From: an uncultured bacterium
Lineage (GTDB): Bacteria > Patescibacteriota > Minisyncoccia > UBA6257 > GWB1-50-10
Assembly: GCA_963713955.1 (NCBI GenBank)
Contig: OY970216.1
Span: 209,934-273,933, forward strand
Reading direction: 5' to 3'
DNA length: 64,000 nucleotides
In this document: piece after piece, positions 31,990-61,976 of the stretch
Layout: every line of letters begins with the position of its first letter
Position numbering within the stretch: position 1 is the stretch's first letter
The notes under the pieces: model-generated
What the model saw: only the letters and a program-made list of their open reading frames with translations
Database searches by the model: none
Told to the model about the DNA's origin: nothing
Translations under genes and position numbers: made by a program

Positions 31990-32047
31990 CGATGCGAATA
32001 ACGAAGAAAATAAATTTGTATAATTAGTATATTAGCATCGATACACC

Positions 32048-32620: not shown

Positions 32621-32627
32621 CCCTACC

Positions 32628-33629: not shown

Positions 33630-33754
33630 TCCCTCACCCTTCGAGGATCGCTTTGAGTCATTTTGGGAAGTACATGAAATTGGAGATTGTCGTAAAAAAG
33701 CTGAGAGAGAAAACTCCGAAGCCGCGGAGTTTATTAATCTTCGAAGGGTGAGGG

Positions 33755-35485: not shown

Positions 35486-35502
35486 GTGCTATTATTACCA
35501 CA

Positions 35503-36582: not shown

Positions 36583-36696
36583 TATAATGAAAGCTATATA
36601 ACACCAACAACGCGAACATATGCGAACAACACGAACGGCTAAGTACATTTGTGTCATTCGTGCGGTTCGTATTGTGCAGTTTGCGTCATTCGTGCC

Positions 36697-37902: not shown

Positions 37903-37984
37903 AGTAATCGCCAATGATGCGAATGACTGCAAATAACGCGAATATGATATAATAAGAACAAATGGTCGATGAATAAAAAAACAA

Positions 37985-38371: not shown

Positions 38372-38378
38372 GCATAAG

Positions 38379-38849
38379 ATGAGAAAAAAAGGTTTCACTC
38401 TCATCGAAATGCTCATCGTGATCGCGATGATCGGAATTCTCTCGACGGTTATTTTGATTGCCCTCGGCCCCTCAAGGACCAAGGCGAAGGATACGAGGAT
38501 AATTTCGGACGTTAATCAGATAAGATCTCTTGGAGAAACATACTACGATCCCATAACGGGCCAGTACGATCTTGCGGGCGTGGCCGCGGCGGCTTCCTCC
38601 ACATTAGCTGACATGAGTGCTATGAATGGCGGAACATGGCAGCCGGACTGTCCATTTGGAAATCCCGACAACGGCATTAAGCCGTGGAGTGGCGATTCTG
38701 ATATTCAGGGAGTAGAGTGCCCCACCTCATTTGATAAATTTTCTGTTTACGGTAAGCTAGTTAGCCCCTCGGTTACTACCTACTACTGTGTGGACAGTTC
38801 AGGAAATACTGCCAACCTGAATCATGTGCCGGGCGTTACCTGTCAATAA
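38379..38849 (+). CDS. Type IV pilin.
   Basis: MRKKGFTLIEMLIVIAMIGILSTVILIALGP. Four Cys in the C-terminal half. Confidence 0.8.
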   Translation: MRKKGFTLIEMLIVIAMIGILSTVILIALGPSRTKAKDTRIISDVNQIRSLGETYYDPITGQYDLAGVAAAASSTLADMSAMNGGTWQPDCPFGNPDNGIKPWSGDSDIQGVECPTSFDKFSVYGKLVSPSVTTYYCVDSSGNTANLNHVPGVTCQ

Positions 38850-39331
38850 TGCGTCCCTTACACTATATAATGTGTAGAAATTCTAAGTCTGGTTTCACTC
38901 TCATTGAAATGCTCGTCGTGATCGCGATGATTGGTCTCCTCTCGGCTGTCATCCTGGTCGCCCTCGGCCCCTCGAGAACCAAAGCCAAGGACACGAGGGT
39001 GATTTCGGATGTGAACCAGGTCCGGGTGTTGGCAGAGAACTTGTTTGACATTTCCACTAGTAAGTACCCGACGTGTATTTGTAACAACTACCCGTGGGAC
39101 GATTGCAAACCCGATCCTGGCTTCTCGGCACTTAAGTCGGACGTGGCGAACGATGGTGGTTCATTCAGTGCAGGCTGCAATAACAAAAATACAGTTGCAG
39201 TTTTTTATTCCAGTCTACCGAGCGGCGGTGGCTATTGTGCTGATACCGCAGGGGGTGCCATTTCCGGTACGGTAGCCTCCAGTTCTCCACCCGGAACCCC
39301 AAATATAGGTGATGTTTGCCCAGAGCAGTAA
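38849..39331 (+). CDS. Type IV pilin. An alternative start is at ATG 38870 (MCRNSKSGFTLIEM).
   Basis: ..NSKSGFTLIEMLVVIAMIGLLSAVILVALGP. The nucleotide sequence of the N-terminal region is nearly identical to pilin 37985. Confidence 0.75.
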   Translation: MRPLHYIMCRNSKSGFTLIEMLVVIAMIGLLSAVILVALGPSRTKAKDTRVISDVNQVRVLAENLFDISTSKYPTCICNNYPWDDCKPDPGFSALKSDVANDGGSFSAGCNNKNTVAVFYSSLPSGGGYCADTAGGAISGTVASSSPPGTPNIGDVCPEQ

Positions 39332-39461
39332 GATGTAATATTATTAAACAATCCAGATGGTGAGAAAATATTTTTCTAAATCAGGCTTTACCCCGCACCG
39401 AGCCAAGCGCTGCAACGCTCTCGCGTTTTCAACAATGACAAGGGATAAGCTGGAACCAACA

Positions 39462-39986
39462 ATGGACATCAAGAGCCGAAATCACCCGTCAGCTGCGAGC
39501 GTTGAAAACGAAGCGCTTGATCTGGTGTCGGGGTTTACCTTAATCGAAATGCTCGTCGTCGTGGCTGTCATCGGGCTTCTTTCGTCCATTCTGTTGAACG
39601 CGTTGGGGCCTGCGAAGGACAAAGCGAAAGACGCAAGGATCATGCAGGAAGTGAATCAGGTGAGAGACATCGCCGAGACCTTGTACAACGGTACGTATAC
39701 CAATTTGCCCTCCATATCCGCCGGCACGACCCAGGTGAATAATGCCAATCTCCAATCGCTCACTTCTGACATTGATCTCCAGGGAGGGGAGCTGCACGTC
39801 GTTTTGTCATCTGACGTGAGAACCTACGTGGCTTACTCCAAACTGAACACAATGGTGCCGGATCCGGTAACAGGTACCCCGACGACCCAGTACTACTGCG
39901 TCGACAGCTCGGGAAAAGCGGTTTTTCTCACGACCCAGCCCAATGACAATAGAATAAGCAATTCTTCGCCGGCCACGTGCGATTAG
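39462..39986 (+). CDS. Type IV pilin with a long leader (MDIKSRNHPSAASVENEALDLVSG|FTLIEM). The ORF track starts at 39357 and includes a degenerate partial copy of a pilin N-terminus (KSGFTPHRAK).
   Basis: SGFTLIEMLVVVAVIGLLSSILLNALGP. The upstream in-frame stretch aaatcaggctttacc... mimics the first codons of pilin 38870 and then diverges. Confidence 0.65.
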   Translation: MDIKSRNHPSAASVENEALDLVSGFTLIEMLVVVAVIGLLSSILLNALGPAKDKAKDARIMQEVNQVRDIAETLYNGTYTNLPSISAGTTQVNNANLQSLTSDIDLQGGELHVVLSSDVRTYVAYSKLNTMVPDPVTGTPTTQYYCVDSSGKAVFLTTQPNDNRISNSSPATCD

Positions 39987-40110
39987 ACATGCCCCGTAGG
40001 ACAACTTCGAACGGGGTATTTCGGAGCGTTTACTTAAGGATTGGGGAGTGAGCTAAGGTCCCGTAGAGAGTTAAAAGGTCTATCATGCAAACAAGAAATA
40101 ATTCGAAGTT

Positions 40111-41022
40111 GTGCTACAGGGTATGATCGGGTTCCTGCTTCTTTTCTTCCTTGGCTTGTCGTTCGGCAGTTTCTTCAACGTTTTGATTCTGCGGTACGAT
40201 CCGGAGGGTAAATTCTTCGATATCAAGAAATTGAGCGGCCGGTCGCATTGCCCGAAATGCATGAGGACGCTCGGCCCCGGGGAACTCATCCCCGTTTTCA
40301 GTTTCATATTTCTCGGAGGGAAATGCTTGCACTGCAGGGAAAGAATATCCTTCTTCTATCCTTTTACCGAACTTTTGACCGGCATTGTTTTTGCCGGCAT
40401 CCCGTATTTCTTGAACGGTTTCTACGGCATAAGCAACGCGGTTTTTTGGATTTTTGCGTTGCCGACGTGGTATTACACCCTTGTTCTTTTCTGGCTCATC
40501 GCGATTGTGACGCTTGTTCTGATTGCCCTTGTCGATTTCAAGTACTATCTCATCCCGGACGAACTAGAGGTAATTCTCTTCCTCGCGGGTGCGGCCGTGT
40601 CGCTTTTGCTCTTTTACTGCGGATCGACGCTCATTGAACCCTTCCGCGATTCATTCCTCAAAAATTATGCCATCATCTTTTCACCGACGCAAAATGTCCT
40701 CATAAGTCATGCCTTTGGAGCCCTTATCGGGGGATTATTCTTTTTGCTGCTTGTTGTCCTGAGTCGCGGGCGGGGGATCGGCTTCGGGGATGTGAAGCTC
40801 GCTTTCGCTTCCGGCGCGGTTCTGGGTTGGCCGGACATAGGTCTTGCAGTTGTTCTCTCGTTCATCCTGGGAGGCATCGTAGGCGTGATTCTTCTTGCCT
40901 TGAGGAGCAGGGGCATGAAGGACAAGGTCCCGTACGCGCCGTTTTTTGTCATCGGCGTCCTCCTCACGGTCGTTTTGGGTCACGCCATCATTTTCAATTA
41001 CTTCCGCCTGTTTGGCATGTAG
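40111..41022 (+). CDS. pilD: Prepilin peptidase PilD (A24 family). GTG start in the ORF track; an ATG at 40123 is also possible.
   Basis: Zn-binding tetracysteine CPKC...CLHC near the N-terminus. Multi-TM. Catalytic Asp contexts (YYLIPDELEV..., IGFGDVKLAFASG). Confidence 0.85.
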   Translation: MLQGMIGFLLLFFLGLSFGSFFNVLILRYDPEGKFFDIKKLSGRSHCPKCMRTLGPGELIPVFSFIFLGGKCLHCRERISFFYPFTELLTGIVFAGIPYFLNGFYGISNAVFWIFALPTWYYTLVLFWLIAIVTLVLIALVDFKYYLIPDELEVILFLAGAAVSLLLFYCGSTLIEPFRDSFLKNYAIIFSPTQNVLISHAFGALIGGLFFLLLVVLSRGRGIGFGDVKLAFASGAVLGWPDIGLAVVLSFILGGIVGVILLALRSRGMKDKVPYAPFFVIGVLLTVVLGHAIIFNYFRLFGM

Positions 41023-41038
41023 GGTATAATAAACCCTA

Positions 41039-41548
41039 ATGAAGGAAGGATTCACTCTCATAGAGACATTGATCGTTCTCGCGATAACGGCGATCCTCTC
41101 GACCATATTCTTGGCCTACAACAGTTCTTCGAACGGCCAAGTCGCGCTCTATACGGAGCGGGCGCAAGTGGTGGGAGCGCTCCAAAGAGCTAAGACGCTC
41201 GCTCTCGACAAATACATGGTGAGCCCCGGGAGCACCTCTTCCTGCGCTTTCGGCGTTCATTTCCAAACCTCGACGGGAGTTTACTCCATTTATGGAAAAT
41301 ACCCGCCGCCCGGCAGCACCGATTGCACCGCCGGTTACGGCTTCATGGGCAACTCAAGTGACACGGTGGTGCAAAGCTTGCAACTCCAGGGAAAGGTTGG
41401 ATTTGTCGATCCCACCCCGTCAGACATTTATTTCGTCCCGCCGTATTTCATCGCAAACGCGACCGGCACTATCACCCTCAAGAGCAACGATAGCGGTGCC
41501 ACGGCGTCCATCGAGGTCACTCAAGGAGGGAGCATTTCATCTCTTTGA
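41039..41548 (+). CDS. Minor pilin / pseudopilin-like protein (FimT/GspH-like).
   Basis: MKEGFTLIETLIVLAITAILSTIFLAY has a class III signal. 169 aa. Confidence 0.7.
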   Translation: MKEGFTLIETLIVLAITAILSTIFLAYNSSSNGQVALYTERAQVVGALQRAKTLALDKYMVSPGSTSSCAFGVHFQTSTGVYSIYGKYPPPGSTDCTAGYGFMGNSSDTVVQSLQLQGKVGFVDPTPSDIYFVPPYFIANATGTITLKSNDSGATASIEVTQGGSISSL

Positions 41549-42081
41549 CGAATATGAGAATAACGCGTCTTAAAAACCGGGAAGGCAGCCTTATGATAGA
41601 AGCCATCGTGGCGGCGAGCCTCGTCGTCGTGGGTCTCTTGGGACTTTTCAATTTGATTTACAACTCGACGGTCAGGGACAAAGACGTAATCCACAAACTC
41701 CAGGCGACGTACTTAGCAGCGGAGGGAATAGAAGTGGTAAAAAACTTCATAGATCAAAACGTCGCTAGCGGAACTCAATGGAACGCCAATCTGTACACAG
41801 GGGATTATCAAGATGTTTCGTTCGATAATCTGGGTCAGGTCGGGACTGGGGATAGCGCCGTTTATTTTGCGACAACCACGGGACTTTTTACCGGATATAG
41901 TTCGGTGTTCACCGCTTTTTCCGGCGGGTCGAGAGAGTTGGCGCTCTTTTCCCGGGTCGTATCGTTGAATGTCGGAACGAATCAAATCAGCGTCACGTCG
42001 ACCGTTTCCTGGTCGGAAGAAGGGAAAAGTGAGTCGGTGAGCTTAGACGACATCTTCTATAATTGGAGGAAACCAAGTTAA
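41545..42081 (+). CDS. Minor pilin-like protein with an atypical prepilin N-terminus.
   Basis: REGSLMIEAIVAASLVVVGLLGLF (G-SLMIEA variant of the cleavage motif). 178 aa. Confidence 0.5.
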   Translation: MTNMRITRLKNREGSLMIEAIVAASLVVVGLLGLFNLIYNSTVRDKDVIHKLQATYLAAEGIEVVKNFIDQNVASGTQWNANLYTGDYQDVSFDNLGQVGTGDSAVYFATTTGLFTGYSSVFTAFSGGSRELALFSRVVSLNVGTNQISVTSTVSWSEEGKSESVSLDDIFYNWRKPS

Positions 42082-42147
42082 ACTTTGTAATATGTTTTTT
42101 GGAATTCATTTCAAAACACCTCTCTGGGTGAAAAAATGCGTGAGGAT

Positions 42148-42228
42148 GCAGACTCAGGAGGGCAAAAAAGTGGGTAAGACTTGGCCTAGCGGCCCGGAGC
42201 GCACACCTTTTTGGCTTCCTGAGTCTGC
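42148..42228. repeat. Copy 1 of a structured palindromic intergenic element: 37-nt conserved core (42170-42206) flanked by A6/T5 runs and a 12-nt inverted repeat gcagactcagga / tcctgagtctgc.
   Basis: Core gtgggtaagacttggcctagcggcccggagcgcacac. Also present at 47461-47497 (+) and 45376-45412 (reverse complement). Confidence 0.6.
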
Positions 42229-42265
42229 AATTATTACCTTTAAAGAGAAGAAGTTACAGAAATAC

Positions 42266-42826
42266 ATGGGTTTCACCATCGTTGAGCTTCTGGTCGCGAT
42301 GGCCGTTTTCGTCATCGTGGTCACGGTCGCGACAGCCATCTTCATACGGTCGCTCCAGAACCAGCGGCGCCTGGTGACGGTCATGGGCATGCAAACAAAT
42401 CTCGACACGGCCCTCGAGCAGATGGCGAGGGAGGTGAGGGGAGGATATTTGTTCTCAGCAAGTACCCTTACATGCGCGAATTCAGTGTCGTTCGACACCG
42501 CGAGCGGTACCGCGGTGTCTTACGGACTATCCAGTAGTTCTATCGTGAGGAACGGGCAGCCGATAACGTCGAGCGACGTCAAGGTTTCGAATCTTTGCTT
42601 TATAGTTTCGCAGGCTCCATTGGGAGATGCGGGCATGTATACCAATCCAGGGAGTCCTTGTAATCCCTGGAGAGTGACGGTAGCCGCCGAGGTTGAGCCG
42701 AGAGTAGCGGGACAATCGAATAATATAGAGCCGTTTTACCTCCAAACCACCGTGAGCTCGCGGGTTTTGCCAAAGGACATGCCGGCGGATATAAAGGGGC
42801 AATATGGATACACATCTTGTCAGTAA
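42266..42826 (+). CDS. PilW/GspJ-like minor pilin. Start at MGFTIVELL; the ORF track 42092 start spans an intergenic repeat element.
   Basis: MGFTIVELLVAMAVFVIVVTVATAIFIRSLQNQRR has prepilin-type N-terminal cleavage/methylation. About 186 aa. Confidence 0.6.
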   Translation: MGFTIVELLVAMAVFVIVVTVATAIFIRSLQNQRRLVTVMGMQTNLDTALEQMAREVRGGYLFSASTLTCANSVSFDTASGTAVSYGLSSSSIVRNGQPITSSDVKVSNLCFIVSQAPLGDAGMYTNPGSPCNPWRVTVAAEVEPRVAGQSNNIEPFYLQTTVSSRVLPKDMPADIKGQYGYTSCQ

Positions 42827-43211
42827 AAATTTAAGGAAAGCTCAGGCTATGATGGTGGTAACCATTCTCATGGGAGGCTTATTTTTGGTTGGCACCGCCG
42901 TTGCGGGCCTTCTCATGCTTTACCAGCTGAAACAATCTTCCGACGCCGTGAGTTCCGGCGCGGCTGTCTTCGCGGCCGATGCCGGGACCGAGGCCAGTCT
43001 TTTCTGCTACTATACGACCTCGACGCCGTCGACTATCTGCGGTATAGGGTACCTCTGCCCGACTTCCGTAAAGCTGCCGAATGGCGCTTCCGCTTCCTCA
43101 ACGCTTCTCTTTCACTGTGACGGGGGATCGCCATCGTATTTCACGGCCGTGAGTTACGGGTATGCCGGCACGTCCGAACGGGTCGTGCAGTCTAACTTCT
43201 CGTTGGAATAG
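42804..43211 (+). CDS. Pilus-associated membrane protein (PilX-like minor component), hypothetical.
   Basis: 135 aa. N-terminal TM MMVVTILMGGLFLVGTAVAGLLML. Cys-rich C-terminus. Last gene of the pilus cluster. Confidence 0.4.
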   Translation: MDTHLVSKNLRKAQAMMVVTILMGGLFLVGTAVAGLLMLYQLKQSSDAVSSGAAVFAADAGTEASLFCYYTTSTPSTICGIGYLCPTSVKLPNGASASSTLLFHCDGGSPSYFTAVSYGYAGTSERVVQSNFSLE

Positions 43212-51931: not shown

Positions 51932-52906
51932 TCATTTCGAGAAATCGAGGATAATATTGTCGACGCGGGGGGTCGAGTTCTGAAGGGAGTTCGTCTGGAG
52001 CATGAGCTCGTACCTGAAATAGCGGTAGTTGCTGAAATAAGTCGGGTTTACGCAAATCGGCGTACCTGGCGCGGGACAGGATGACAGCGTTCCTCCCGTG
52101 AGACTCTGGCTGCACGGCGCGCCGTACCAATTGCTTCCCGTGCCCGAGGGACCGATGTAATTCCAGGAGCTGCTTGTGCTATTCGAAGCCGCGATCTGGA
52201 ATCCCAATGCGGTCCCGGCAAGGCCACACGATCCTTGCCACACGATGCTCTGGAGAGTTGCTGGCCCGCCTGCGTCTATCGTGTACGATGTGAGATAACC
52301 CACGGTACTCGTTGATCTCCAACTGGTATTCACGAGATACGGCGCTGCCGAGCAATTGCCGCCGCCCGGATTCGAGCAGTTGAAACTAATCCATCCCGCG
52401 AGATCGTTCCACGCCCAGCCGTTGAAGTTGCCATTCGAGTCTATCGAGACGTCGTAGCTCACCGAACCGGGGCAGACGGCCGAATTTTGCCCGCCGCAGA
52501 AACTAATCCATCCCACGAGATCGTTCCACGCGAAACCGCTCAAAGCTCCCGTCGCGTCCGCGCCGCTGCAGGAACCGTCGGCGTTGTGCGTCGCGTTCGT
52601 GCCGTTGCAGATGCCGTAGTTTGAGGTGCCGCACAGGTTTCCGTTTCTGGTTGTGAAGCAATCGAGAGAGAGGTCGCCCACGGAAGAACTGGCATAGCCG
52701 CTTATTTTGGTGCCTGCGACAAGGACGGCTTGAGTCCCGTAAAAATCCCAAAAGCCGTCAAGCGGGTCGTAAGCCGACGAGCTGGTCGGTGAAGATGCTA
52801 TGTTGGTGCTTGCAGCAGCCGACGGGGCGCCGGAGAGTATCAAAAACAGGGTCATCGCGACGACAATCGCGACGAGTATCCAGAAAACGATCTTGACCGG
52901 TTTCAT
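51932..52906 (-). CDS. Secreted Cys-rich protein with GFAWNDLVGWISF / GWAWNDLAGWISFN repeats. Same repeat family as in the 9145 protein.
   Basis: 324 aa. Signal/TM IVFWILVAIVVAMTLFLILSG. Ser/Thr-rich linker. Two copies of G[FW]AWNDL[VA]GWISF followed by Cys clusters. Confidence 0.5.
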   Translation of the reverse strand: MKPVKIVFWILVAIVVAMTLFLILSGAPSAAASTNIASSPTSSSAYDPLDGFWDFYGTQAVLVAGTKISGYASSSVGDLSLDCFTTRNGNLCGTSNYGICNGTNATHNADGSCSGADATGALSGFAWNDLVGWISFCGGQNSAVCPGSVSYDVSIDSNGNFNGWAWNDLAGWISFNCSNPGGGNCSAAPYLVNTSWRSTSTVGYLTSYTIDAGGPATLQSIVWQGSCGLAGTALGFQIAASNSTSSSWNYIGPSGTGSNWYGAPCSQSLTGGTLSSCPAPGTPICVNPTYFSNYRYFRYELMLQTNSLQNSTPRVDNIILDFSK

Positions 52907-53000
52907 TTCTTCAATTATATATCAAAAATTTGTTTTATGTTATAATGGGGAAACCCCGCGCCCGAGGAGGCACGGGAAAAGGTCAAATTTCTTTTTAAAA

Positions 53001-53444
53001 ATGAAAGACAAGTTAAATAGGATACTCTTGGCGATCGTGATAGTTCTTTTTTTGGTCTTGGTCGGGATTTTGTACTGGAAGTTCTGGGGGAGCGGGGAGT
53101 CGTCGTATTACGCAGTGTATCTCCGGACGGGAGATCTCTACTTCGGGGAACTCAGCACTTTTCCGTCGTTCCAACTGACCCATGTCTACATGCTCCAGGT
53201 GAACTCCCAGAACCAGGAGAATCCGGTGAGCGTCCAGAAGTTCGCGAGTGTTTTCTGGGGACCGGAAGATTCGATAAAGATAAACAAGGACGACATCGTA
53301 TGGTACACCAAGCTTGCTTCCACGAGCCGGCTCCTTGGGCTTATTAAATCCAACCCGTCGCTCGCGTCGGGGACGCCGTCCGAGAACATTCCGCCGAGTA
53401 ATCAGACGTCAACGGTGGAAGTGCCCGTTGAGGGATCCAAATAG
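53001..53444 (+). CDS. Membrane-anchored hypothetical protein. Start at MKDKLNR; the ORF track gives 52800.
   Basis: N-terminal TM ILLAIVIVLFLVLVGILYW. About 147 aa. Directly upstream of the pilin-like gene. Confidence 0.4.
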   Translation: MKDKLNRILLAIVIVLFLVLVGILYWKFWGSGESSYYAVYLRTGDLYFGELSTFPSFQLTHVYMLQVNSQNQENPVSVQKFASVFWGPEDSIKINKDDIVWYTKLASTSRLLGLIKSNPSLASGTPSENIPPSNQTSTVEVPVEGSK

Positions 53445-53494
53445 AGTTGTTTGGCTCGCCGAACCTGCGCCGTTCAAGATTCTCCGTTTTTGTT

Positions 53495-53941
53495 ATGATG
53501 AAAGGTATGTCACCGGATCGTGTGAAAAAAGGAAACTCGGGCCAAACAGCGCTGCCGTTCATATTACTCGTGAGTGGTATTATCATTGAAATAGTGGTGG
53601 CAGGGACTCTCACGTCTTACTTCGCGAGTGGTTCCGGCTTCGGGGAGAGGTTGGATGCGAGAGCTGTGGCAGCCGCCTCTTCGGGGATCAACGACGCTCT
53701 GATGCAACTCACGAAGAACAAGGATTTCGGCTCCTCCAATCCCACGTACGGAGTCGGTGTGGGGAGTGATGCGGCAACGGTCACCTTCACAAGCGCTCTC
53801 TCGAACGGCTACTACAACTATACGGTTACTTCACTCGGAATCGCTGGGACGAGGCAAAAGAAAATAGTCGCCACGGTCGCGGTCGATGCCTCAACCGGCA
53901 GCATGAGCCTCACTTCTCTCGGGGAGGTTCCAATCCAATAG
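53495..53941 (+). CDS. Prepilin/TadE-like small membrane protein, tentative. The ORF track starts at 53447.
   Basis: KKGNSGQTALPFILLVSGIIIEIVVAG resembles TadE/pseudopilin N-termini (RGQxAVEFALVLP). Gly/Ser-rich remainder. Confidence 0.35.
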   Translation: MMKGMSPDRVKKGNSGQTALPFILLVSGIIIEIVVAGTLTSYFASGSGFGERLDARAVAAASSGINDALMQLTKNKDFGSSNPTYGVGVGSDAATVTFTSALSNGYYNYTVTSLGIAGTRQKKIVATVAVDASTGSMSLTSLGEVPIQ

Positions 53942-53955
53942 AAACAAATGGAAAA

Positions 53956-55470
53956 ATGAAAATAAGAGAACTATTACAAAAGGCGGTTAAATTATTTGAG
54001 AAACTGAGCTCAAAACCCAGAATAGACGGCCTGGAGATAACCGGCAGTACTCTCAAGTACGCGTGGTTGGAAGGCGGGAGCGTGAGAACCGCGGGTGTGA
54101 AGCTTGCGCCGGGGATCATCGTCGAAGGCAAACTGCGCGACCGAGAGGGTTTTTTGAAAGCGCTCGCTGCTCTCAAATCTGCGATTGTAATCGGCAGGAA
54201 AGATAAAACGCTCCGGATCAATGTCGTTCTTCCCACCCCCATTATTTTTACCCAGAGTTTTTCGGTTCCAAACCTGAGCGCCGGGGAATTGGAAGAATCC
54301 GTTAACCTCAATCTGCAGATGATATCCCCCATAGCGAGGGAGGAAGCCAATATGAGCGCCCAGATAGTTTCGGAACGCGACTTCAATTATGAATTTTTTG
54401 GTGCTTTCGCCGAGCGAAAGGAGGTTGCGAACTACGAATCGGCTCTCGTGGAAGGCGGCTTCGCGCCGGTTTCGTTTGAGTTCCAAGCGTTATCCCTCGC
54501 GCGATTTATAAGAAATTTTTCCGTTGCTTCGGAGGGGCTCGTTTTGGTTTTCAGCCTGTCTCCCGACGGCATCGAATTGTTTCTCATCGTGGATGGCAAC
54601 ACGCATTTCAGTTACTTTAGGTCGTGGCAGTCGATTCAGGGGAATCTGCCATCTCTCTCGAGGAGTTTGTTCGAGGAGGTTATTGCCGAGGAAGTTGTCA
54701 AGGTCGTGAATTTTTCGTCCGGCAAATTCGGTCTTTCTCCCGGATCGCTTCTCTTCTTGGCTCCCGGCTTTGAGGAAGAAATGGGGAAGCTCGCGGAGAG
54801 CAGACTGGGGATAAAATCCGCTCCGATATTCTCTCCCCGCCTCAAGGCTCAACCCCTCTTTTATTCCGCGGTCGGTGCCGCGATGCGGTGGCAGGATGAA
54901 AAAGAAAACGGAGACTTGAAGGCCATAAACCTGGGCGGAGAAGATCTCGTGAGGGTCATCTATGAAGAGCAATTCCTGAATTTCACGTCGTTGTGGCGCG
55001 GAATACTGTCAGGCGTTTTTGGTTTTCTCCTCCTCGCGTACGTGGGGGGGTCTCTTTTCGTCATTGGTCAATACAAATCGGTGAATGCGGATATCTCCTC
55101 GTTCAATCCGCCGCTTGATGAAACGAAACTCACTGACATGACGAATAAGGTTACCACCTTCAATAATCTGGTGAAAGAACTCGGAACCATCCGGGGTTCG
55201 AGCGAAGATTTCTACAGTCCCTTGAAGCACTTATCCGACCTCACGAAGGCAAGTGAAATCAAGATTCTTTCGCTTAACGTAACCTCGCTTTCTTCTCCCG
55301 TCACCATCTCCGCGAACGCTCCGAGCTACAACACGGTTTTGGAGTTCAAAAACAAGATTTCTTCAGATGCCATGTTTGCTAATATCGATCTGCCGTTGAC
55401 TGAGATAATAACCCAGAGTGACGGATCGGTTAACTTCTCCCTCTCCTTCAGTTTCAACCTGAGCCATTAA
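53956..55470 (+). CDS. PilM-like (actin-fold) domain fused to a TM plus periplasmic PilN/PilO-like C-terminal region. Second pilus-assembly-type module.
   Basis: 504 aa. N-terminal GLEITGSTLKYAWLEGGSV... and LVLVFSLSPDGIELFLIVDGN resemble PilM subdomains. TM ILSGVFGFLLLAYVGGSLFVIGQY at about residue 345. C-terminal coiled/beta region. Confidence 0.45.
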   Translation: MKIRELLQKAVKLFEKLSSKPRIDGLEITGSTLKYAWLEGGSVRTAGVKLAPGIIVEGKLRDREGFLKALAALKSAIVIGRKDKTLRINVVLPTPIIFTQSFSVPNLSAGELEESVNLNLQMISPIAREEANMSAQIVSERDFNYEFFGAFAERKEVANYESALVEGGFAPVSFEFQALSLARFIRNFSVASEGLVLVFSLSPDGIELFLIVDGNTHFSYFRSWQSIQGNLPSLSRSLFEEVIAEEVVKVVNFSSGKFGLSPGSLLFLAPGFEEEMGKLAESRLGIKSAPIFSPRLKAQPLFYSAVGAAMRWQDEKENGDLKAINLGGEDLVRVIYEEQFLNFTSLWRGILSGVFGFLLLAYVGGSLFVIGQYKSVNADISSFNPPLDETKLTDMTNKVTTFNNLVKELGTIRGSSEDFYSPLKHLSDLTKASEIKILSLNVTSLSSPVTISANAPSYNTVLEFKNKISSDAMFANIDLPLTEIITQSDGSVNFSLSFSFNLSH

Positions 55471-55552: not shown

Positions 55553-56083
55553 CTAGATTCCCAGTTCCGCCTTGATCGACTGAAAAACTTCCGTGAGTTT
55601 TTGGAGCGAACGCGCATCAATGGTTCTCAAAACAAAGTCACCGGCTTTTTTTCGCCGCCTTTCGCCTTCGTTCCTGATACCGATCCTCACTCTCCAGAAA
55701 TCCCTCGTTTTCATCTCCGCTATCGCCGATGAGACACCCCGGTGTCCCGCTGGCCCCCTCCCGAACTGTATGCGATATTCGCCGAGCGGAATGTCGGCAT
55801 CATCGTGGACGAACGCCGTTTCCGCGGGGGTCGATTTGAAATAAGAGATGGCTTTCTTGGCTGCCTTTCCCGATTCATTCATGAGAAAGGAATCTGTTTT
55901 CACGAGCGCGAAGGGGCCGTATTTGAAATAAGAGAACGAGGGGCCTGACCTCCAGGCGGCTTCTTCGCCGGAGAGAAAATCCAGAAATTTAAACCCGGCG
56001 TTGTGAAACGTGTCCTTGTACTCTTTCCCGGGATTGCCGAGACCTATGATTACTCTCAGATTATTTGCTTTTTTACTTTCCAT
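55553..56083 (-). CDS. pth: Peptidyl-tRNA hydrolase.
   Basis: LRVIIGLGNPGKEYKDTFHNAGFKFLD (GLGNPG, HN). VHDDADIPLGEYRIQFGRGPAGHRGVSS (HDE.D...G..R.K.GG...GHNG). Confidence 0.9.
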   Translation of the reverse strand: MESKKANNLRVIIGLGNPGKEYKDTFHNAGFKFLDFLSGEEAAWRSGPSFSYFKYGPFALVKTDSFLMNESGKAAKKAISYFKSTPAETAFVHDDADIPLGEYRIQFGRGPAGHRGVSSAIAEMKTRDFWRVRIGIRNEGERRRKKAGDFVLRTIDARSLQKLTEVFQSIKAELGI

Positions 56084-56135
56084 TGAATAGAATTTACCCA
56101 GTAGTGAAAACTCGCCTCTATCATTATATTACATT

Positions 56136-56690
56136 ATGAAGAAAATATTTTGGTCCATCGCCGAAATGCTCGAGACCATCGCGATAGCGGTGGTAGCCGT
56201 CCTCGTCGTCCGGACATTCGTCGCCCAGCCGTTTTTGGTCAGCGGTTCAAGCATGGAGCCGACCTTCAACAACGGTGATTACCTTCTGGTCGACGAACTT
56301 ACCTATCATTTCCGATTCCCGGAACGGGGAGAGGTGATCGTTTTGAAATACCCCAAAGATCCCAGTTCTTATTTCATCAAGAGAGTTATCGGCTTGCCGG
56401 GGGAAACAGTCGTTATTAAGAATGGCGAGGTTACCGTCGTCGATCAGGGGAAGAAGGAGGTCTTGAACGAGCCGTACCTGGATCAGCCGATGGTGCCGGG
56501 CGACTTCGAGGAGACGCTGGGCCCCAATCAGTATTTCGTAATGGGAGACAACAGGAACTACAGCTACGACTCAAGGAGCTGGGGACCGGTACCGTCGAGC
56601 GACGTCGTGGGAGTGGTGAGACTGCGCTTGTGGCCTCTCGCGACCGCCATGGCTTTCGGAACCCCTTCCTATGGTACGAGTACCCCATGA
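56136..56690 (+). CDS. lepB: Signal peptidase I.
   Basis: TM then catalytic Ser SGSSMEPTF. Lys box VIGLPGETV. GDNRNYSYDSRSWGPV. Confidence 0.85.
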   Translation: MKKIFWSIAEMLETIAIAVVAVLVVRTFVAQPFLVSGSSMEPTFNNGDYLLVDELTYHFRFPERGEVIVLKYPKDPSSYFIKRVIGLPGETVVIKNGEVTVVDQGKKEVLNEPYLDQPMVPGDFEETLGPNQYFVMGDNRNYSYDSRSWGPVPSSDVVGVVRLRLWPLATAMAFGTPSYGTSTP

Positions 56691-57970
56691 AGGCAAAGCA
56701 GAAAAATCAGCAGGTCTTTTTGGGGCTCGAGGCGATGCCCGATGCCCTCCCGCGCCTCCAAGGGTACTGGAGACAAGTCTGGGAGACGGGGAGAGCGGTC
56801 TCCGAGCTCCATGATTTTTATCTCATGGAACCTGCCATGCTCGAGCGGTATGAGGTTTTCGAGGATGCTTTCGGCAGCGACCGGGAACTCCTGAAGGACA
56901 AAATTTTTTCCCTGAAAATGGGAAAGATGAAAGCAGCTCTCCGGTTCAGTTTCCGGGAATCGGTTCTCCGGAGTTTCATCGACCATAAACTGGCTTATTT
57001 CGCATACCCCCTCAAAGTTTTCCACTTCGGTCCGGTTTTCAGGAACGTGAAGGCGGACGAATATTTTCTGAAGGAATTTCACGAACTTGGCTTCCAAGTC
57101 GTGGGGGAAACCGATCCCATCTATGACGGGGAAATCATCATGGCTTTCTACGATTTTTTCAAAAGTTTGAGACTTTCCGGCGTCATGCTGAAGATCGGAA
57201 GCTCCGGCTGCCGCGCCTGCCGCGGATCTTTCAGGCAAAAACTTGTCAATTACTACAAGGGGAAAATGAAAGACGTTTGCAAAGGGTGCGCCAAGAATTT
57301 CGAGGTAAATCCGTTCCTTCTCCTCACTTGCGAGAAGGAAGAGTGCCGGGCCGTCCGGCAAAACGGGCCGATTATGTTCGATTATTTGTGCCAGGGCTGC
57401 AACAATCATCTGAAGTCTGTTCTCGAACTCGTGGAGGACAACGGCATCGCGTACGAGCCGGATGCTAACCTCGTTTCCACGAACGAGCTCAACGACCGGA
57501 CCATCTTCGAGTTCAGAGTTCCGGAAATGCCCTACCCCTTGGCTTTCGGTTCGCGTTATGACTACGTCTCCGAGGCGGTTTTCAAAAAACAGATTCCGGC
57601 CGTGGGAGGGAATCTGGGAGTGGAAAGGACCATTGAGGCGATGGCGCGGCAGGGAATAGAACCGAGATTCAAGTCCAAACCGAGAGTGTTCTTTCTCGTC
57701 ATCGGCGATCAAGCCAAGAAAGGAGCGCTGCGCCTCATGAACAAGTTAAGACTTGCCGGCGTCGCCGTCGTCGAGGTCGTCGGCAAGAAAACGTTGAAAG
57801 CCCAAGTGAAGACCGCCGAGAAGATGGGAATCAAATTAGCCCTTCTCCTCGGGCAGAAGGAGATTTTCGACGGGACGGTCATCTTACGGGACATGACATC
57901 GGGGATACAGGAAACCATTCTCGTCGACAAGCTGGTGGAAGAGGTGAAGAAAAGGTTGAATAATGAATAA
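56687..57970 (+). CDS. hisS: Histidyl-tRNA synthetase-like class II aaRS with a divergent N-terminal/motif-1 region. Start at MKAKQKN, overlapping the lepB stop (ATGA).
   Basis: Motif 2-like FHFGPVFRNVKADEYFLKEFHELGFQVVGE. Motif 3-like AFGSRYDYVSEAVFKKQIPAVGGNLGVERTIEAM (GGRYD...AVGFA.G.ER pattern). C-terminal anticodon-binding domain (VFFLVIGDQAKKGALRL...VAVVEV...). HisZ paralog not excluded. Confidence 0.65.
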   Translation: MKAKQKNQQVFLGLEAMPDALPRLQGYWRQVWETGRAVSELHDFYLMEPAMLERYEVFEDAFGSDRELLKDKIFSLKMGKMKAALRFSFRESVLRSFIDHKLAYFAYPLKVFHFGPVFRNVKADEYFLKEFHELGFQVVGETDPIYDGEIIMAFYDFFKSLRLSGVMLKIGSSGCRACRGSFRQKLVNYYKGKMKDVCKGCAKNFEVNPFLLLTCEKEECRAVRQNGPIMFDYLCQGCNNHLKSVLELVEDNGIAYEPDANLVSTNELNDRTIFEFRVPEMPYPLAFGSRYDYVSEAVFKKQIPAVGGNLGVERTIEAMARQGIEPRFKSKPRVFFLVIGDQAKKGALRLMNKLRLAGVAVVEVVGKKTLKAQVKTAEKMGIKLALLLGQKEIFDGTVILRDMTSGIQETILVDKLVEEVKKRLNNE

Positions 57971-58391
57971 GATGGATTGCTTGTTCTGCAAAATAGTGAA
58001 AGGCGAAATTCCGGCGCACGTCGTTTACGAGAGCGATGCGGCTTTGGGAATTCTCGATGTAAATCCCAAAGCCCCCGGCCATGCGATGGTGATACCGAAG
58101 ATCCACGCCGAAAACGTATTGGACCTGCCGGCGGAATCCGTGGGCCCCGTGTTTTTGGCTGTCAAGGAAACAACGGAGAAGCTCAAGAAAGCTTTTTCGC
58201 CGGACGGTTTTACGATAGGGATCAATCATGGCCGCGTTTCGGGGCAGTCGGTTAACCATCTGCACATCCATATCATGCCGCGGTGGTTTTCCGACGGAGG
58301 CGGTTCGGTGCACGGCGTCGTTTCGAATCCTCCCCGCGAGACGTTGGAGGAGATCAAAGACAGGATACTAAGGTCGAACAAGGAAAAGTAG
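57963..58391 (+). CDS. HIT-family (histidine triad) nucleotide hydrolase.
   Basis: CLFCKIVKGEIPAHVVYESD..., histidine triad VNHLHIHIMPR. Confidence 0.85.
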   Translation: MNKMDCLFCKIVKGEIPAHVVYESDAALGILDVNPKAPGHAMVIPKIHAENVLDLPAESVGPVFLAVKETTEKLKKAFSPDGFTIGINHGRVSGQSVNHLHIHIMPRWFSDGGGSVHGVVSNPPRETLEEIKDRILRSNKEK

Positions 58392-58396
58392 TTACC

Positions 58397-58612
58397 ATGG
58401 AAATCAGAAAAAGAAAAAACGAAAGCGTAGGAACCTTTCTCTACCGCTTCAACAAAAGAGTCCAGCAAAGCGGGATCCTGAAAGAAGTGAAAAAAAGGAA
58501 AGCGGTCACGAGGCCGCAAAACAGGAGGAAGAGAAGAATATCGGCCATTTACCGGTACCGGCGGGAAAAAGAAATCAAACGATCCCGCAAGTTGGGGTAC
58601 ACCGGTCGGTGA
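58397..58612 (+). CDS. rpsU: 30S ribosomal protein S21. Start at MEIRKRKNES; the ORF track 58283 start is an upstream extension.
   Basis: MEIRKRKNESVGTFLYRFNKRVQQSGILKEVKKRKAVTRPQNRRKRRISA fits the S21 consensus (V.V..NE....ALRRFKR..E..G.L.E.R.R..YEKP...RKRK). Confidence 0.8.
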   Translation: MEIRKRKNESVGTFLYRFNKRVQQSGILKEVKKRKAVTRPQNRRKRRISAIYRYRREKEIKRSRKLGYTGR

Positions 58613-58631
58613 TTTTATCCGCGTTTCCTCT

Positions 58632-59093
58632 ATGTCCCTCATCAAGGAAAAAATAGAAGGCGATTTAAAGGATGCGATGAAAGGAAGGGATGACTTCAAA
58701 GTCGGGGCTTTGCGTTTTCTCCTCTCGAGCATCCAGGGGAAGGAAATAGACAAGAGGGGCAAGGGTTTCGCGGAAACGCTCTCCGACGAAGAAGCGGAAG
58801 ACGTCTTGAGAAAGGAATACAAAAAGAGGAAGGAATCCTTCGAAATTTATTCCCGGAGCGGCCGGAGCGACCTCGCGTCCGGGGAAGAAAAGGAAATGGC
58901 CGTCATCGAGAGCTATCTCCCGCCCCGGGTGTCCTCCGCGGAGGTGAGGAAAATAATCGATGACGCCGTCGCCGCGATTCAGCTTTCCGGCCCCGGGGAC
59001 TTCGGGCGCGTGATGGGCGAAGTCATGAAGAAAGCGAAGGGCGCCGACGGTTCGGAGGTTTCCCGGATCATAAAGGAAAAACTCGCGGGTTAG
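58632..59093 (+). CDS. yqeY: GatB/YqeY domain protein.
   Basis: KEKIEGDLKDAMKGRDDFKVGALRFLLSSIQGKEID...EAEDVLRKEYKKRKESFEIYSRSGRSDLASGEEKEMAVIESYLP matches YqeY. Confidence 0.8.
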   Translation: MSLIKEKIEGDLKDAMKGRDDFKVGALRFLLSSIQGKEIDKRGKGFAETLSDEEAEDVLRKEYKKRKESFEIYSRSGRSDLASGEEKEMAVIESYLPPRVSSAEVRKIIDDAVAAIQLSGPGDFGRVMGEVMKKAKGADGSEVSRIIKEKLAG

Positions 59094-59096
59094 GCC

Positions 59097-59522
59097 ATGA
59101 ATCGGAATCTAGTCTCATTCGGAGTGTCTAAAAAGAGGTTTACAAAGTACGAAAGAGCTGTGAGAGAAGCAGCTCTTCTTTCGTTGAAGGTTCTCGGCAA
59201 GAACAAGAAAGCTCTGGATATTTTCCTCGTCCCCGACGGTGAGATGAAAAAGCTCAATCGCCGATTCAGAGGCAGGAACAAGGTGACGGACGTCCTGAGT
59301 TTCCCTGCTGACCCCCCGTTTCCGCGGCCCGATCTCGGGAAGCGGGATTTCATCGGGGAGATTTTCCTGGCGCCGGACTTCGTTGAAACGGAAAAAGAAG
59401 ACATCCGTTTTCTCACGGTGCACGCCACGTTGCACCTTCTCGGGTATACCCATTCCGCCCGGAAAGATAGTATAATGATGAATAAGCTGGAACGTAAAAT
59501 TTGGCCATGTCGAAAATATTAA
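59097..59522 (+). CDS. ybeY: rRNA maturation endoribonuclease YbeY.
   Basis: ALDIFLVPDGEMKKLNRRFRGRNKVTDVLSFP and zinc-binding HATLHLLGYTH (H..LHL.GYDH). Confidence 0.8.
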   Translation: MNRNLVSFGVSKKRFTKYERAVREAALLSLKVLGKNKKALDIFLVPDGEMKKLNRRFRGRNKVTDVLSFPADPPFPRPDLGKRDFIGEIFLAPDFVETEKEDIRFLTVHATLHLLGYTHSARKDSIMMNKLERKIWPCRKY

Positions 59523-60724
59523 CAAGCTTGGATTTGGGTTCATCGCAATTCAAGGGCATCGTCGTCGAAGAAAAAAAAGACGGCTTCCTTTCCGTAATAT
59601 CCGCTTTCAAGCAGCCGTCGGACGGTTTCCGGAAAGGCGTCCTCGTTGATTTCGAGGAGGCCGCGGATTCTTTGGGGAAAATTTTTTCCGACTTGTCCAA
59701 AATCTCGAAGAAGGCGGTCCAGAATGTTTTCATAAACGTGGCGAGCGAATACATAAGACCGCGTCCCTCGCGGGGAGCGGTCGCCATTTCGAACGTAAGC
59801 CGCGAGATAAAGAGCGACGACGTGGAGAAGGTGAATCAGCTTTCCCTGGCTTTCAAGGCAAGTCCCAACTCGTTCGTGCTCCACAACATAACCAAGGAAT
59901 ACATCGTGGATGACATCGGGGATATCTTGGACCCCGTGGGCATGGCCGGCAACCGGCTCGAGGTTGAGACGCTTATCGTCGAGGGGGTATCGTCGCAGGT
60001 GAATCCGCTCATAAGGCTCTTCGATTCTGTGGATGCCACGGTCGGGGGATTGGTTTTCAATCCTCTGGCCGCCGCCGAGGCCGTGCTTTCCAAGAAACAA
60101 AAGAACCTCGGGGTGATGATGATAGATTTCGGATCGGGAACCACAAACGTCGCCGTTTTCGAAGAAGGGAAAATCCTCCATGCGAAGACCATACCCATCG
60201 GATCGTCGTACATCACGAACGACATCGCAATCGGCCTCAAAGTTTCCGTCGATCTGGCTGAAAAACTCAAGTTGAGCTACAGCTCGGCGACTTCCTCGGG
60301 CGTCGGGAAGCGGGACGTCGTACGCCTCATGGACGTTGATGGAAAGAGTGAGGGAGAAATATCGAGGAAATTCCTCTCCGAAATAATAGAAGTCAGGGTT
60401 GCAGAAATTCTGGATTTAATAAATAATGAGGTGAAGGCGATAGGCCGGAGTATACAGCTTCCGGGCGGGGTGGTAGCAACGGGGGGCGGCGTCAAGCTCT
60501 ATAAAATGGACGAGATTTTAAGGGAAGAAATGCGTCTCCCGGCCCAGGTAGGATTCCCCAATCTAAACCGCTTCGAGGTCATGAATCCGGCTCACAAGGA
60601 GATGATCGACGATCCGGAATTCGCCGTGGCGGTGGGGCTCATGCTGAAAGCTTCCGAGGAAGACGGCCGGCCTGTCCAAAAAATAAGGTCAATTAAAGAT
60701 TTCTTAAGGAATCTCCTTCCTTAA
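59507..60724 (+). CDS. ftsA: Cell division protein FtsA.
   Basis: ILTSLDLGSSQFKGIVVE..., IDFGSGTTNVAVFEEG, VATGGGVKL. Actin-like ATPase. Located upstream of ftsZ. Confidence 0.85.
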   Translation: MSKILTSLDLGSSQFKGIVVEEKKDGFLSVISAFKQPSDGFRKGVLVDFEEAADSLGKIFSDLSKISKKAVQNVFINVASEYIRPRPSRGAVAISNVSREIKSDDVEKVNQLSLAFKASPNSFVLHNITKEYIVDDIGDILDPVGMAGNRLEVETLIVEGVSSQVNPLIRLFDSVDATVGGLVFNPLAAAEAVLSKKQKNLGVMMIDFGSGTTNVAVFEEGKILHAKTIPIGSSYITNDIAIGLKVSVDLAEKLKLSYSSATSSGVGKRDVVRLMDVDGKSEGEISRKFLSEIIEVRVAEILDLINNEVKAIGRSIQLPGGVVATGGGVKLYKMDEILREEMRLPAQVGFPNLNRFEVMNPAHKEMIDDPEFAVAVGLMLKASEEDGRPVQKIRSIKDFLRNLLP

Positions 60725-60731
60725 CATAGCA

Positions 60732-61976
60732 ATGGATAAAAAAAATAGGAGTGTAAAAAAGAGGAGAAAGAACTTCTCGAGGGCGCGGGAGCCGAAATCA
60801 AAAAGAACGGAAGGCGTAACCAAGATAAAAGTCGTGGGAATCGGCGGGGCCGGGAATCACATCGTCTCGAGAATGATGGAGAGCGAGCGTCCGAGAGGCG
60901 TCGAGTTTGTCGCCGTGAACACCGATACGCAGGATTTGGATTATACGACGGCTCACCGGAAACTCTACATCGGTAAGGCTCTGACCAAGGGTTTGGGAGC
61001 GGGAATGAATCCCGAGATCGGCAAACAGGCGGCCGAGGAAAACCGTTCCGAGATTGGAGAAGCGCTCGAGGGAGCGGACATCGTTTTCATAACCGCCGGC
61101 ATGGGCGGAGGAACCGGCAGCGGTTCCGCCCCGGTTGTGGCGGAGATCGCCAAAGAAAAAGGAATCCTGACCATCGCCGTTGTAACGAAGCCGTTCGGTT
61201 TTGAAGGAACGCAGCGCGCGGTGATCGCCCAGGAAGGCATCACGAGGCTCAAGGATAAAGTCGATGCACTGGTCGTGATCCCCAACGACAGGATTTTCAC
61301 GGTGATACAAAAAGACACGCCGGTTTTGAAAGCCTTCTCTTACATCGACGATGTTCTGAAACAAGCCGTGCGGGCGCTCGCGGAACTCATCAACACGCCG
61401 GGGCTCATCAACGTGGACTTCGCGGACATAAGATCGGTCTTGAAGGAATCCGGAACGACGTTGATCGGAATCGGAATTGCCTCGGGTCAGGATCGGGGGA
61501 TCAAGGCGGTGAGTTCGGCCGTCAATTCCCCGCTTCTTGAAGTGACGCTCGACGGCGCGAAAGGCGTCTTGTTCTCGATCGCCGGCAGCCGCGATCTCAA
61601 GATGTCCGAAATCAACGACATCGCGAAAGCAATCTCGGCGAGCCTCGACTCGGGGGCCAAAGTGATCTTCGGTGCCTACTATGACCGAGGCTTGAAAGAT
61701 AAAGCGCTCAAAGTTACCGTCATCGCGACAGGCTTTAACGGGATGTTTTCCGAGAAGAGAGCTATTCCGAATCTCTTCATGGTTGGTGAGAGCCCGAAAC
61801 GCGGTGATGAAAACCAAAACTCCCTGAGGAAGGAACCGGAATCGAAAAAACAAATTGAGACTGAGATCTCGTCCGGCGAGAAAGCGAATGAAAACCTAAA
61901 GCCGAGCAAGGAACCTAAGGTGGAAAAACCGGAGCCGTGGGAAATACCCGCGTTCCTCCGGAAAAAGAAAAAATAA
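60732..61976 (+). CDS. ftsZ: Cell division GTPase FtsZ.
   Basis: IKVVGIGGAGNHIVSRM, tubulin signature FITAGMGGGTGSGSAPVVAEIAKE, T7 loop NVDFADI, basic C-terminal tail. Confidence 0.95.
   Translation: MDKKNRSVKKRRKNFSRAREPKSKRTEGVTKIKVVGIGGAGNHIVSRMMESERPRGVEFVAVNTDTQDLDYTTAHRKLYIGKALTKGLGAGMNPEIGKQAAEENRSEIGEALEGADIVFITAGMGGGTGSGSAPVVAEIAKEKGILTIAVVTKPFGFEGTQRAVIAQEGITRLKDKVDALVVIPNDRIFTVIQKDTPVLKAFSYIDDVLKQAVRALAELINTPGLINVDFADIRSVLKESGTTLIGIGIASGQDRGIKAVSSAVNSPLLEVTLDGAKGVLFSIAGSRDLKMSEINDIAKAISASLDSGAKVIFGAYYDRGLKDKALKVTVIATGFNGMFSEKRAIPNLFMVGESPKRGDENQNSLRKEPESKKQIETEISSGEKANENLKPSKEPKVEKPEPWEIPAFLRKKKK

Follow-up and report, generated by a model that had tools for sequence, protein, structure and literature searches.

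A conserved four-gene module with a PilM-PilN-like fusion and a pilin-like protein in Patescibacteria

The four-gene module and its gene context in relatives

The stretch analyzed here, referred to as the window, comprises 64,000 nucleotides of contig OY970216.1 from an uncultured bacterium of the Patescibacteria (Paceibacteria/Minisyncoccia-type), the close relatives of which are labelled Patescibacteria, Minisyncoccia, Jorgensenbacteria, Paceibacterota, and Brennerbacteria. At positions 51932-55470 it carries a module of four genes from unannotated families, a real and conserved feature which we assign to the type IV pilus (T4P) machinery. A preliminary description, made from the letters alone, had listed a protein with GWISF repeats and three co-directional genes divergent from it; all four open reading frames (ORFs) are present as described, and a separate gene call on the identical public contig yields the same four genes (324, 147, 144, and 504 amino acid residues). 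Their products are called here the GW protein, TM147, pilinL, and PilMN. The features of the module are as follows (TM, transmembrane; pLDDT, predicted local distance difference test).

51932-52906, minus strand: GW protein, 324 residues, Cys-rich, with GWISF repeats
52907-53000, no strand: intergenic region that separates the divergent GW gene from the plus-strand trio, probably promoter-bearing
53001-53444, plus strand: TM147, a bitopic membrane protein of 147 residues
53507-53941, plus strand: pilinL, a non-canonical pilin-like protein of 144 residues; alternative start at 53495 (148 residues)
53956-55470, plus strand: PilMN, 504 residues, in which a PilM-like actin-fold domain is fused, by way of a PilN-type linker and TM helix, to a PilN-like outer domain
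54013-54900, plus strand: PilM-like actin-fold domain of PilMN, residues ~20-315, delimited by secondary structure, pLDDT, and the aligned range
54925-54942, plus strand: INLGGE motif of PilMN, residues 324-329, at the position of the N-terminal INLLP peptide of PilN that is bound by PilM
54994-55065, plus strand: Trp-Arg and TM helix of PilMN, residues 347-370
55108-55467, plus strand: PilN-like outer domain of PilMN, a coiled helix followed by an alpha-beta-beta-alpha-beta-beta core

The strongest evidence for the nature of this module is its gene context. A scan of one genome per species revealed 113 relatives of PilMN, and 80 loci (cited below by L numbers) were fetched and mapped with hidden Markov models (HMMs). 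The pilinL gene lies directly upstream of the PilMN gene in all 74 loci that have enough upstream DNA, in Paceibacteria and Jorgensenbacteria and down to 27% identity, an arrangement that is not due to chance. TM147 adjoins this pair in 48 of 70 loci, and pth (on the minus strand), lepB, and hisS follow downstream of PilMN in 73 of 80. No ATPase or platform gene is found next to the module, within 7 kb upstream, in 47 of 53 loci.

At 27-31% identity, among the most distant loci, pilinL and PilMN come last in a T4P operon transcribed from one strand, with the order pilB(-pilB)-pilC-N_methyl pilin(s)-[GW]-[TM147]-pilinL-PilMN. Locus L082 reads PilB-PilB-PilC-N_methyl pilin-pilinL-PilMN, its genes overlapping or abutting and flanked by unrelated housekeeping genes, and L076, L077, L078, L081, and L083 share the arrangement [response regulator]-major pilin-PilB-PilC-minor pilin-'GQSLIE' N_methyl pilin-[GW]-[TM147]-pilinL-PilMN. 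The ATPase and the platform protein that are linked to the pair in these relatives are of the PilB/PilC type (T2SSE with MshEN; T2SSF).

Several further observations concern the surroundings of the module. The gene order pth(-)-lepB-hisS-HIT-yqeY-ybeY-ftsA-ftsZ (window 55553-61976, L002-L084) is unusually stable, being retained in 73 of 80 species-level loci and persisting to 28% PilMN identity. The tandem PilB-type ATPases of L082 (1483-4897) are both full-length, at 567 and 569 residues, and stand ahead of PilC, with no PilT visible. A sigma-70-like site on the minus strand (52943-52914) agrees with the consensus at 10 of 12 positions, which is a consensus match only, and a promoter and terminator scan of the module returned nothing decisive. 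None of the four module proteins matches a phage family in PHROG, and a phage origin was rejected on this ground.

Properties of the four proteins

The 504-residue protein PilMN had been described as a PilM-like actin fold with a TM helix linking it to an outer domain, and this is borne out by profile searches, fold searches, and a structural model. A profile of 32 homologues (27-61% identity), compared with all PDB sequences, retrieves the PilM proteins of Myxococcus xanthus (1e-15) and Thermus (3.9e-11) and no other meaningful match. Foldseek, queried with an AlphaFold model (pLDDT 86), places PilM of Pseudomonas aeruginosa, M. xanthus, and Thermus first (E ~1e-18 to 1e-16), FtsA second (~1e-11), and GspL/EpsL third (~1e-8); the best match is 5eou, a PilM:PilN(1-12) chimera. 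The N-terminal domain has an actin-like ATPase fold with a 1C subdomain of the PilM/FtsA type and is PilM-like on profile search, as the preliminary description had supposed. Among the relatives, PilM_2 (PF11104) is matched by 13 of 32 at E<=0.01 and Pfam PilN by 6 of 32 (best E 1.2e-5). In neither sequence nor fold is PilMN closer to GspL than to PilM. The alignment with PilM places LEITGS and SLSPDG where LDIGS and DIGA are, and the phosphate-binding DxG motifs look altered.

The remainder of the chain has the layout of PilN, that is, an INLLP-like peptide, one TM helix, a coiled helix, and a ferredoxin-like outer domain. The I-N-L of INLGGE is well kept in the family (I in 27, N in 26, and L in 28 of 32) and sits in cis, 20 residues ahead of the TM helix; INLGGE takes the position of the peptide through which PilN binds PilM. 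W347 and R348 are invariant or nearly so among family members. The model contains a long helix (331-382), and DSSP assigns H389-414, H420-432, E436-441, E449-455, H458-470, E474-478, and E492-500 to the outer half. The alpha-beta-beta-alpha-beta-beta succession is the pattern of PilN, PilO, and the periplasmic part of GspL (PMC4471445). Alignment of the outer half with the window's own PilN using hhalign is colinear over 146 columns at E 0.016, against E 0.76 for PilO; with the Pfam PilN matches, this retains the PilN half of what had been termed a "PilM-PilN/O fusion" and dismisses the PilO half. In L072 (1259-2841), the PilMN homologue is represented by two overlapping ORFs, reflecting a frameshift, a pseudogene, or an assembly error.

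The gene for pilinL begins at 53495 (148 residues) or at 53507 (144 residues, the choice of the gene caller), and the conserved part of the protein starts at Gly-Gln, residues 12-13 of the 144-residue form. The N-terminus reads KKGNSG-QTALPFILLVSGIIIEIVVAG and is followed by an amphipathic helix and a C-terminal region; a pilin fold is presumed. Among the homologues, conservation of the N-terminal part is extreme. Its profile, searched against 1.84 billion representatives, recovers a family of 490 cluster representatives at E<=1e-3, nearly all of 135-160 residues. The motif derived from 126 representatives is [KR][KR]-G(106)/A(17)-Q/I/V-x-A/T-L-P/S-x-I/V-L-L-x-G/S-G-I-I-x-E(110)-I-A-I-A-G. A basic leader ending in Gly or Ala thus precedes ~20 hydrophobic residues, which resembles class III signal peptides; weak Class_IIIsignal matches are found in 7 of 18 members (best E 0.017), and PilX_N matches 1 of 52 (E 0.02).

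The preliminary description had ascribed to this small protein a TadE/pseudopilin-like N-terminus. The pilin-type character stands (basic residues, Gly/Ala, hydrophobic helix) and the TadE character does not, there being no match to the TadE profile; of the expected prepilin-processing motif, pilinL has the Gly/Ala site but lacks the Glu5/N-methyl signature. Because Glu5 and N_methyl are lacking, we regard pilinL as a non-canonical pilin-like protein and as a putative, rather than a proven, substrate of PilD. GspK, PilX, and ComGG likewise combine a Gly/Ala site with a missing Glu5/N-methyl signature, and pilinL resembles such proteins. The PilX1 and PilX2 proteins of Saccharibacteria have non-canonical signal peptides and large C-terminal domains of adhesin type (PMC12206443). 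Four members of the pilinL family carry added C-terminal modules, namely fn3 repeats with DUF1554, an Ig/fn3-like module, Laminin_G_3, and GW repeats.

TM147 is the best conserved protein of the set, with >140 homologues, all of them unnamed. The membrane anchor proposed for it is indeed present, the protein being bitopic with an N-terminal TM helix (residues 2-30), which is followed by an extracytoplasmic Sm/LSm-like barrel of five strands (residues ~35-118) and a low-complexity Pro/Ser/Gln tail. The AlphaFold model (pLDDT 82) reveals the TM helix, a small bent five-strand barrel of the Sm type, and a disordered tail. Profile comparisons with PilO, PilP, GspM, and GspC give no sequence support for a relationship, and homology to any of these was rejected since the fold is a barrel and not a ferredoxin-like fold or a beta-sandwich; a correspondence would be a functional guess only. 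The L078 operon includes TM147, which there separates the GW gene from pilinL. One Jorgensenbacteria genome keeps TM147 next to the divergent GW gene and has >10 kb of other genes in the place where pilinL-PilMN would otherwise be. This stretch (L085/L086 10482-20417, LCQG01000005), which extends for >10 kb after GW/TM147, encodes an LTD-domain protein, cupredoxin-like proteins, and two genes of the bAvd/23S_rRNA_IVP type, a kind that accompanies diversity-generating retroelements.

The GW protein consists of an N-terminal hydrophobic signal or anchor, a Cys-rich repeat region, and a conserved C-terminal domain (residues ~199-324), and it matches nothing in Pfam, NCBIfam, or PHROG. The repeat region holds two full G[FW]AWNDLxGWISF repeats (~52513 and ~52396, minus strand) and one degenerate N-terminal copy; the C-terminal domain is typified by the motif "WQG..FQIAAS..W.YIGP..YRYFRY..P.VD.IIL.FS". 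Orthologues of 57-58% identity are divergent from the module in L002 and L003, and in the window and its closer relatives the GW protein is better conserved (57-58%) than PilMN (~42%).

Both the GW repeats and the C-terminal domain are modules borne by pilins elsewhere, and in this window they form a protein of their own. A single N_methyl pilin in L073 bears the C-terminal domain together with three GW repeats (BLASTP 4e-27 and 3e-12), and in L076, L077, and L081 it is the domain alone that makes up the C-terminus of the "GQSLIE" N_methyl pilins (BLASTP 1e-15). In protein P0238, GW repeats are joined to a pilinL family protein (5e-12), and the operons of L078, L079, and L083 encode the GW protein separately, with a signal peptide. 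It had been suggested that the module serves the GW protein as an anchoring system for a cargo. A tie between the two is supported by their proximity in two orientations and by the domain fusions with pilins; the role of cargo is not, and because fusions and neighborhoods tie GW to the pilin set, we read the protein as a subunit or tip factor.

The pilins at L076:5362-6405, L077:3179-4177, L081:4771-5865, and L073:4461-5954 are "KGQSLIE" N_methyl minor pilins, and their shared domain, "WQG..F.IASS..W.Y.G...RY.RY...P.IDDIIINWSP", has no Pfam model. Elsewhere in the window, a 716-residue ORF (9145-11295, plus strand) contains one GWVNLGG motif, which is reminiscent of the GW repeats.

The main type IV pilus locus and the place of the module

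Bacteria of the candidate phyla radiation (CPR) have been proposed to lack an outer membrane (PMC6744442). Outside the four-gene module, Pfam searches reveal a complete monoderm-type T4P locus in the window, at 30.9-43.2 kb.

30886-42826, plus strand: main T4P locus, encoding PilM, PilN, PilO, PilB, PilT, PilC, three GFTLIEM pilins, PilD, and minor pilins (Pfam matches)
33755-35485: PilB of the main locus, with an N-terminal MshEN domain
40111-41022: PilD of the main locus
41039-42826: pilin4, p5, and p6 of the main locus
42804-43211, plus strand: p7, closing gene of the main-locus minor-pilin set and a weak pilinL paralogue, outside the module

The PilM of this locus matches PF11104 at 1e-31 and is accompanied by a PilN-like protein and PilO; PilB is of the T2SSE type with MshEN, PilT and PilC are also encoded, and there are four minor-pilin-like genes in addition to the three GFTLIEM pilins and PilD. 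The ORF listed for PilT (35239-36582, plus strand) overlaps the end of PilB (35485), and its true start is probably at ~35500. Housekeeping genes (ligA ... corA) fill the interval between the main locus and the module, 43.2-51.8 kb.

The last gene of the main-locus set, p7, matches a broad pilinL HMM at E 6.3e-5, confined to the N-terminal 66 positions (the TM and helix part), and the pilinL of L062 by phmmer at 3e-6; hhalign with a narrow pilinL profile is not significant (probability 0.6%). Since the narrow-profile comparison fails and the broad match is restricted to the TM/helix part, this putative paralogy is treated as weak. With p7 as a weak paralogue of the gene at 53507-53941, the genome would therefore hold two PilX-like genes. 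The N-terminus of p7 reads "RKAQAMMVV..." and a C-terminal stretch "...SYGYAGTSERVV" precedes QSNFSLE.

On balance, we consider it probable that the module is an accessory sub-module of the host's T4P machinery rather than a separate filament system. Compared with the operon-linked proteins of distant relatives, the window's PilB shows 37% and its PilC 29% identity; PilMN (29%) and pilinL (31-42%) fall in the same range against their own operon-linked counterparts. Divergence that matches in this way fits a single shared motor, with that of the main locus as the module's orthologous partner.

The following arrangement can be proposed from the observed folds, homologies, gene linkages, and fusions. 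PilMN would be a single-chain PilM-PilN alignment or assembly pair, in which the cytoplasmic actin-fold domain docks the assembly ATPase, the PilN-type peptide is held in cis, and the outer ferredoxin-like domain contacts pilins and partner proteins. In known systems the PilM-PilN complex is the counterpart of GspL and couples the ATPase to the pilins (PMC4471445). The pilinL protein, PilX/GspK/ComGG-like and without Glu5, would most likely be part of a priming or tip complex. A separate signal-anchored protein here, the GW protein is probably presented on pilinL or together with it and would serve as an adhesin-like tip factor. TM147, as a membrane-anchored Sm-like barrel that travels with both sub-pairs, may be a PilO/PilP-like partner of the PilN domain or else a chaperone or anchor for the GW protein. 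The motor (PilB, PilT), the platform (PilC), the peptidase (PilD), and the major pilins would be supplied by the locus at 30.9-42.8 kb, where the PilB, PilC, and PilD genes lie 10-20 kb upstream of the module. We infer physical interactions among these proteins, processing of pilinL by PilD, a location at the tip, a role in adhesion, and use of the main-locus motor.

A number of points weigh against this assignment. PilMN itself has no Pfam match at E<=0.01, PF11104 included; its match to NCBIfam pilM TIGR01175 (E 2.7e-7, 29.9 bits) lies below the 133-bit cut-off, and that to Pfam PilN PF05137 (E 0.19, 12.2 bits) below the cut-off of 22.8. In the 126 pilinL representatives, position +5 is Pro (92) or Ser (25) and not Glu, and a near-invariant Glu occurs at +16. 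N_methyl (PF07963) is matched by 0 of 52 pilinL members, although true pilins of the same genomes do match it, and a PDB profile search with pilinL gave nothing significant (an archaeal pilin at E 3.9). We know of no T4P or type II secretion system (T2SS) component with an Sm-like fold. TM147 is not beside the pair in 22 of 70 loci, and the GW gene is beside the module in at least 19 of 63 (divergent in at least 13, co-directional in at least 6), a lower bound as its profile was built from three close sequences. The organism already has separate PilM, PilN, and PilO as well as the PilX-like p7, and the need for a second set is unexplained. Finally, the window represents 64 kb of an ~805-kb (804,691-bp) contig, and the relatives were read with flanks of 7-10 kb, so that a second ATPase may lie elsewhere.

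This last point bears on the alternative of an independent second filament system, with an ATPase, platform, and major pilin of its own elsewhere in the genome and a distinct GW-tipped filament, comparable to T4P-1 and T4P-2 of Saccharibacteria. Such duplication has a precedent, for Saccharibacteria do possess two T4P systems (PMC12206443), and the window contains paralogous pairs (PilM/PilN and PilMN; p7 and pilinL). Some relatives have a self-contained PilB-PilC-pilin-pilinL-PilMN operon with no separate PilM/PilN/PilO nearby, and the operon of L082 carries two PilB genes. However, an ATPase, platform, or major pilin is missing within 7 kb upstream in 47 of 53 loci, and none occurs in the 64-kb window besides those of the main locus; the divergence of main-locus PilB/PilC equals that of PilMN, which fits orthology and a single motor, and the genomes are very small (longest contig ~805 kb). 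We therefore consider a second system unlikely, and the "distinct filament system" of the preliminary description is not supported for a module that has no ATPase, platform, or peptidase of its own and divergence data that fit one shared motor.

Without a long pilus, the same proteins might form a T2SS-like pseudopilus or anchoring device in which PilMN acts as GspL, pilinL as a GspK-like cap, and TM147 as a GspM/GspC-like protein, pushing the GW protein through the wall or holding it at the surface. The PilM-TM-PilN layout is that of GspL (PMC4471445), the fold search retrieves GspL cytoplasmic domains, pilinL lacks Glu5 as does GspK, and the GW protein brings a signal or anchor of its own, besides being linked to TM147. 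Even so, we rate this device as distinctly unlikely. Very improbable, in our judgment, is a non-pilus, FtsA-like membrane scaffold with small bitopic partners that would act in envelope growth or division and be kept by its fixed place among housekeeping and division genes. Sequence profiles return PilM and PilN only and never FtsA, and 4 kb downstream (59501-60724) there is a gene for a bona fide FtsA that contains an SHS2 domain. The pair, moreover, shares an operon with pilB, pilC, and N_methyl pilins in L078, L081, and L082, lineages without that synteny, and the domain fusions all point to pilins.

Within the reading of the module as an accessory part of the T4P machinery, a more specific proposal is possible, though doubtful. 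The pilinL-PilMN pair, TM147, and the detached GW protein might constitute a dedicated "second head" for one pilus motor, that is, an alternative priming or alignment complex yielding a second kind of pilus tipped by a non-covalent, lectin-like GW module, with TM147 as a new Sm-fold component that replaces PilO/PilP. If true, this would be a new route to pilus diversification in minimal genomes and would add a new pilus-associated fold.

T4P are thought to be central to host attachment and DNA uptake in ultra-small Patescibacteria, where the machinery is barely characterized (PMC6744442, PMC12206443). Four "hypothetical" families that are kept in >100 species-level genomes are now placed in this machinery, which improves genome annotation. 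The hypotheses gained are a single-chain PilM-PilN, a Pfam-invisible PilX-like family that carries adhesin modules, a GW/C-terminal module that is either fused to pilins or free, and a membrane partner with an Sm fold. For host recognition, the GW module is a candidate determinant.

Comparison with known systems

A general picture of T4P in CPR bacteria exists (PMC6744442), and a study of Saccharibacteria has dissected two such systems (PMC12206443). Our literature search found general accounts of CPR T4P and of the PilMN of Clostridioides difficile and no description of the four-gene module or of its three Pfam-less families.

The preliminary description had also suggested a Tad-like or competence-type filament. 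Neither label survives, in that no TadE, Flp, or ComG profile is matched and the linked ATPases are of PilB type. With regard to Tad/Flp, the nearest approach is 1 of 18 pilinL members against PF13400 at E 8.9, and the linked ATPases carry MshEN; as to the Com pseudopilus, neither ComGG nor ComGF is matched by any of 18 plus 52 pilinL members. To our knowledge, ComG operons contain no PilM/PilN homologues.

The barrel of TM147 finds its likeness in Sm/LSm proteins (PDB 3by7; LSm, Sm, Hfq). TM147 differs from these in being membrane-anchored, with a barrel predicted to lie outside the cell; it has no sequence similarity to them, and RNA binding is implausible at an extracellular site.

The pilinL protein shares with PilX, GspK, ComGG, and Saccharibacteria PilX1/PilX2 a basic-Gly-hydrophobic N-terminus without Glu5 and a position last in the minor-pilin gene order. 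PilX1 and PilX2 are adhesin candidates with large C-terminal modules, as are found in pilinL family members (PMC12206443). Unlike PilX, GspK, and ComGG, pilinL has no significant match to PilX_N, ComGG, T2SSK, or N_methyl, and it carries Pro or Ser at +5, with a near-invariant Glu following the Gly at a distance of 16 residues. The extra C-terminal modules on four family members recall modular type IV pilins, among which GW repeats or the C-terminal domain are grafted on N_methyl pilins (L073, L076, L077, and L081) and on pilinL (P0238), whereas in the window the modules are detached, forming a signal-anchored protein of their own from a divergent gene.

PilMN residues ~20-315 find their best profile and fold match in PilM-PilN of type IVa pili (T. 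thermophilus 2ych, M. xanthus 3jc8, and P. aeruginosa 5eou). The INL motif ahead of the TM helix and the twofold alpha-beta-beta outer domain are as in PilN of these pili, and in relatives the PilMN gene is likewise linked to pilB, pilC, and pilins. Unlike PilM-PilN, the protein is a single chain, scores below curated thresholds, and has no accompanying PilO gene. The same layout of a cytoplasmic actin-like domain, one TM helix, and an outer ferredoxin-like domain is seen in PilMN of C. difficile (PMC7057214) and in GspL (PMC4471445), from which the present protein is distinguished as a second copy, located outside the main cluster and paired with a pilin-like gene. As with C. difficile, the host is expected to be without an outer membrane (PMC6744442).

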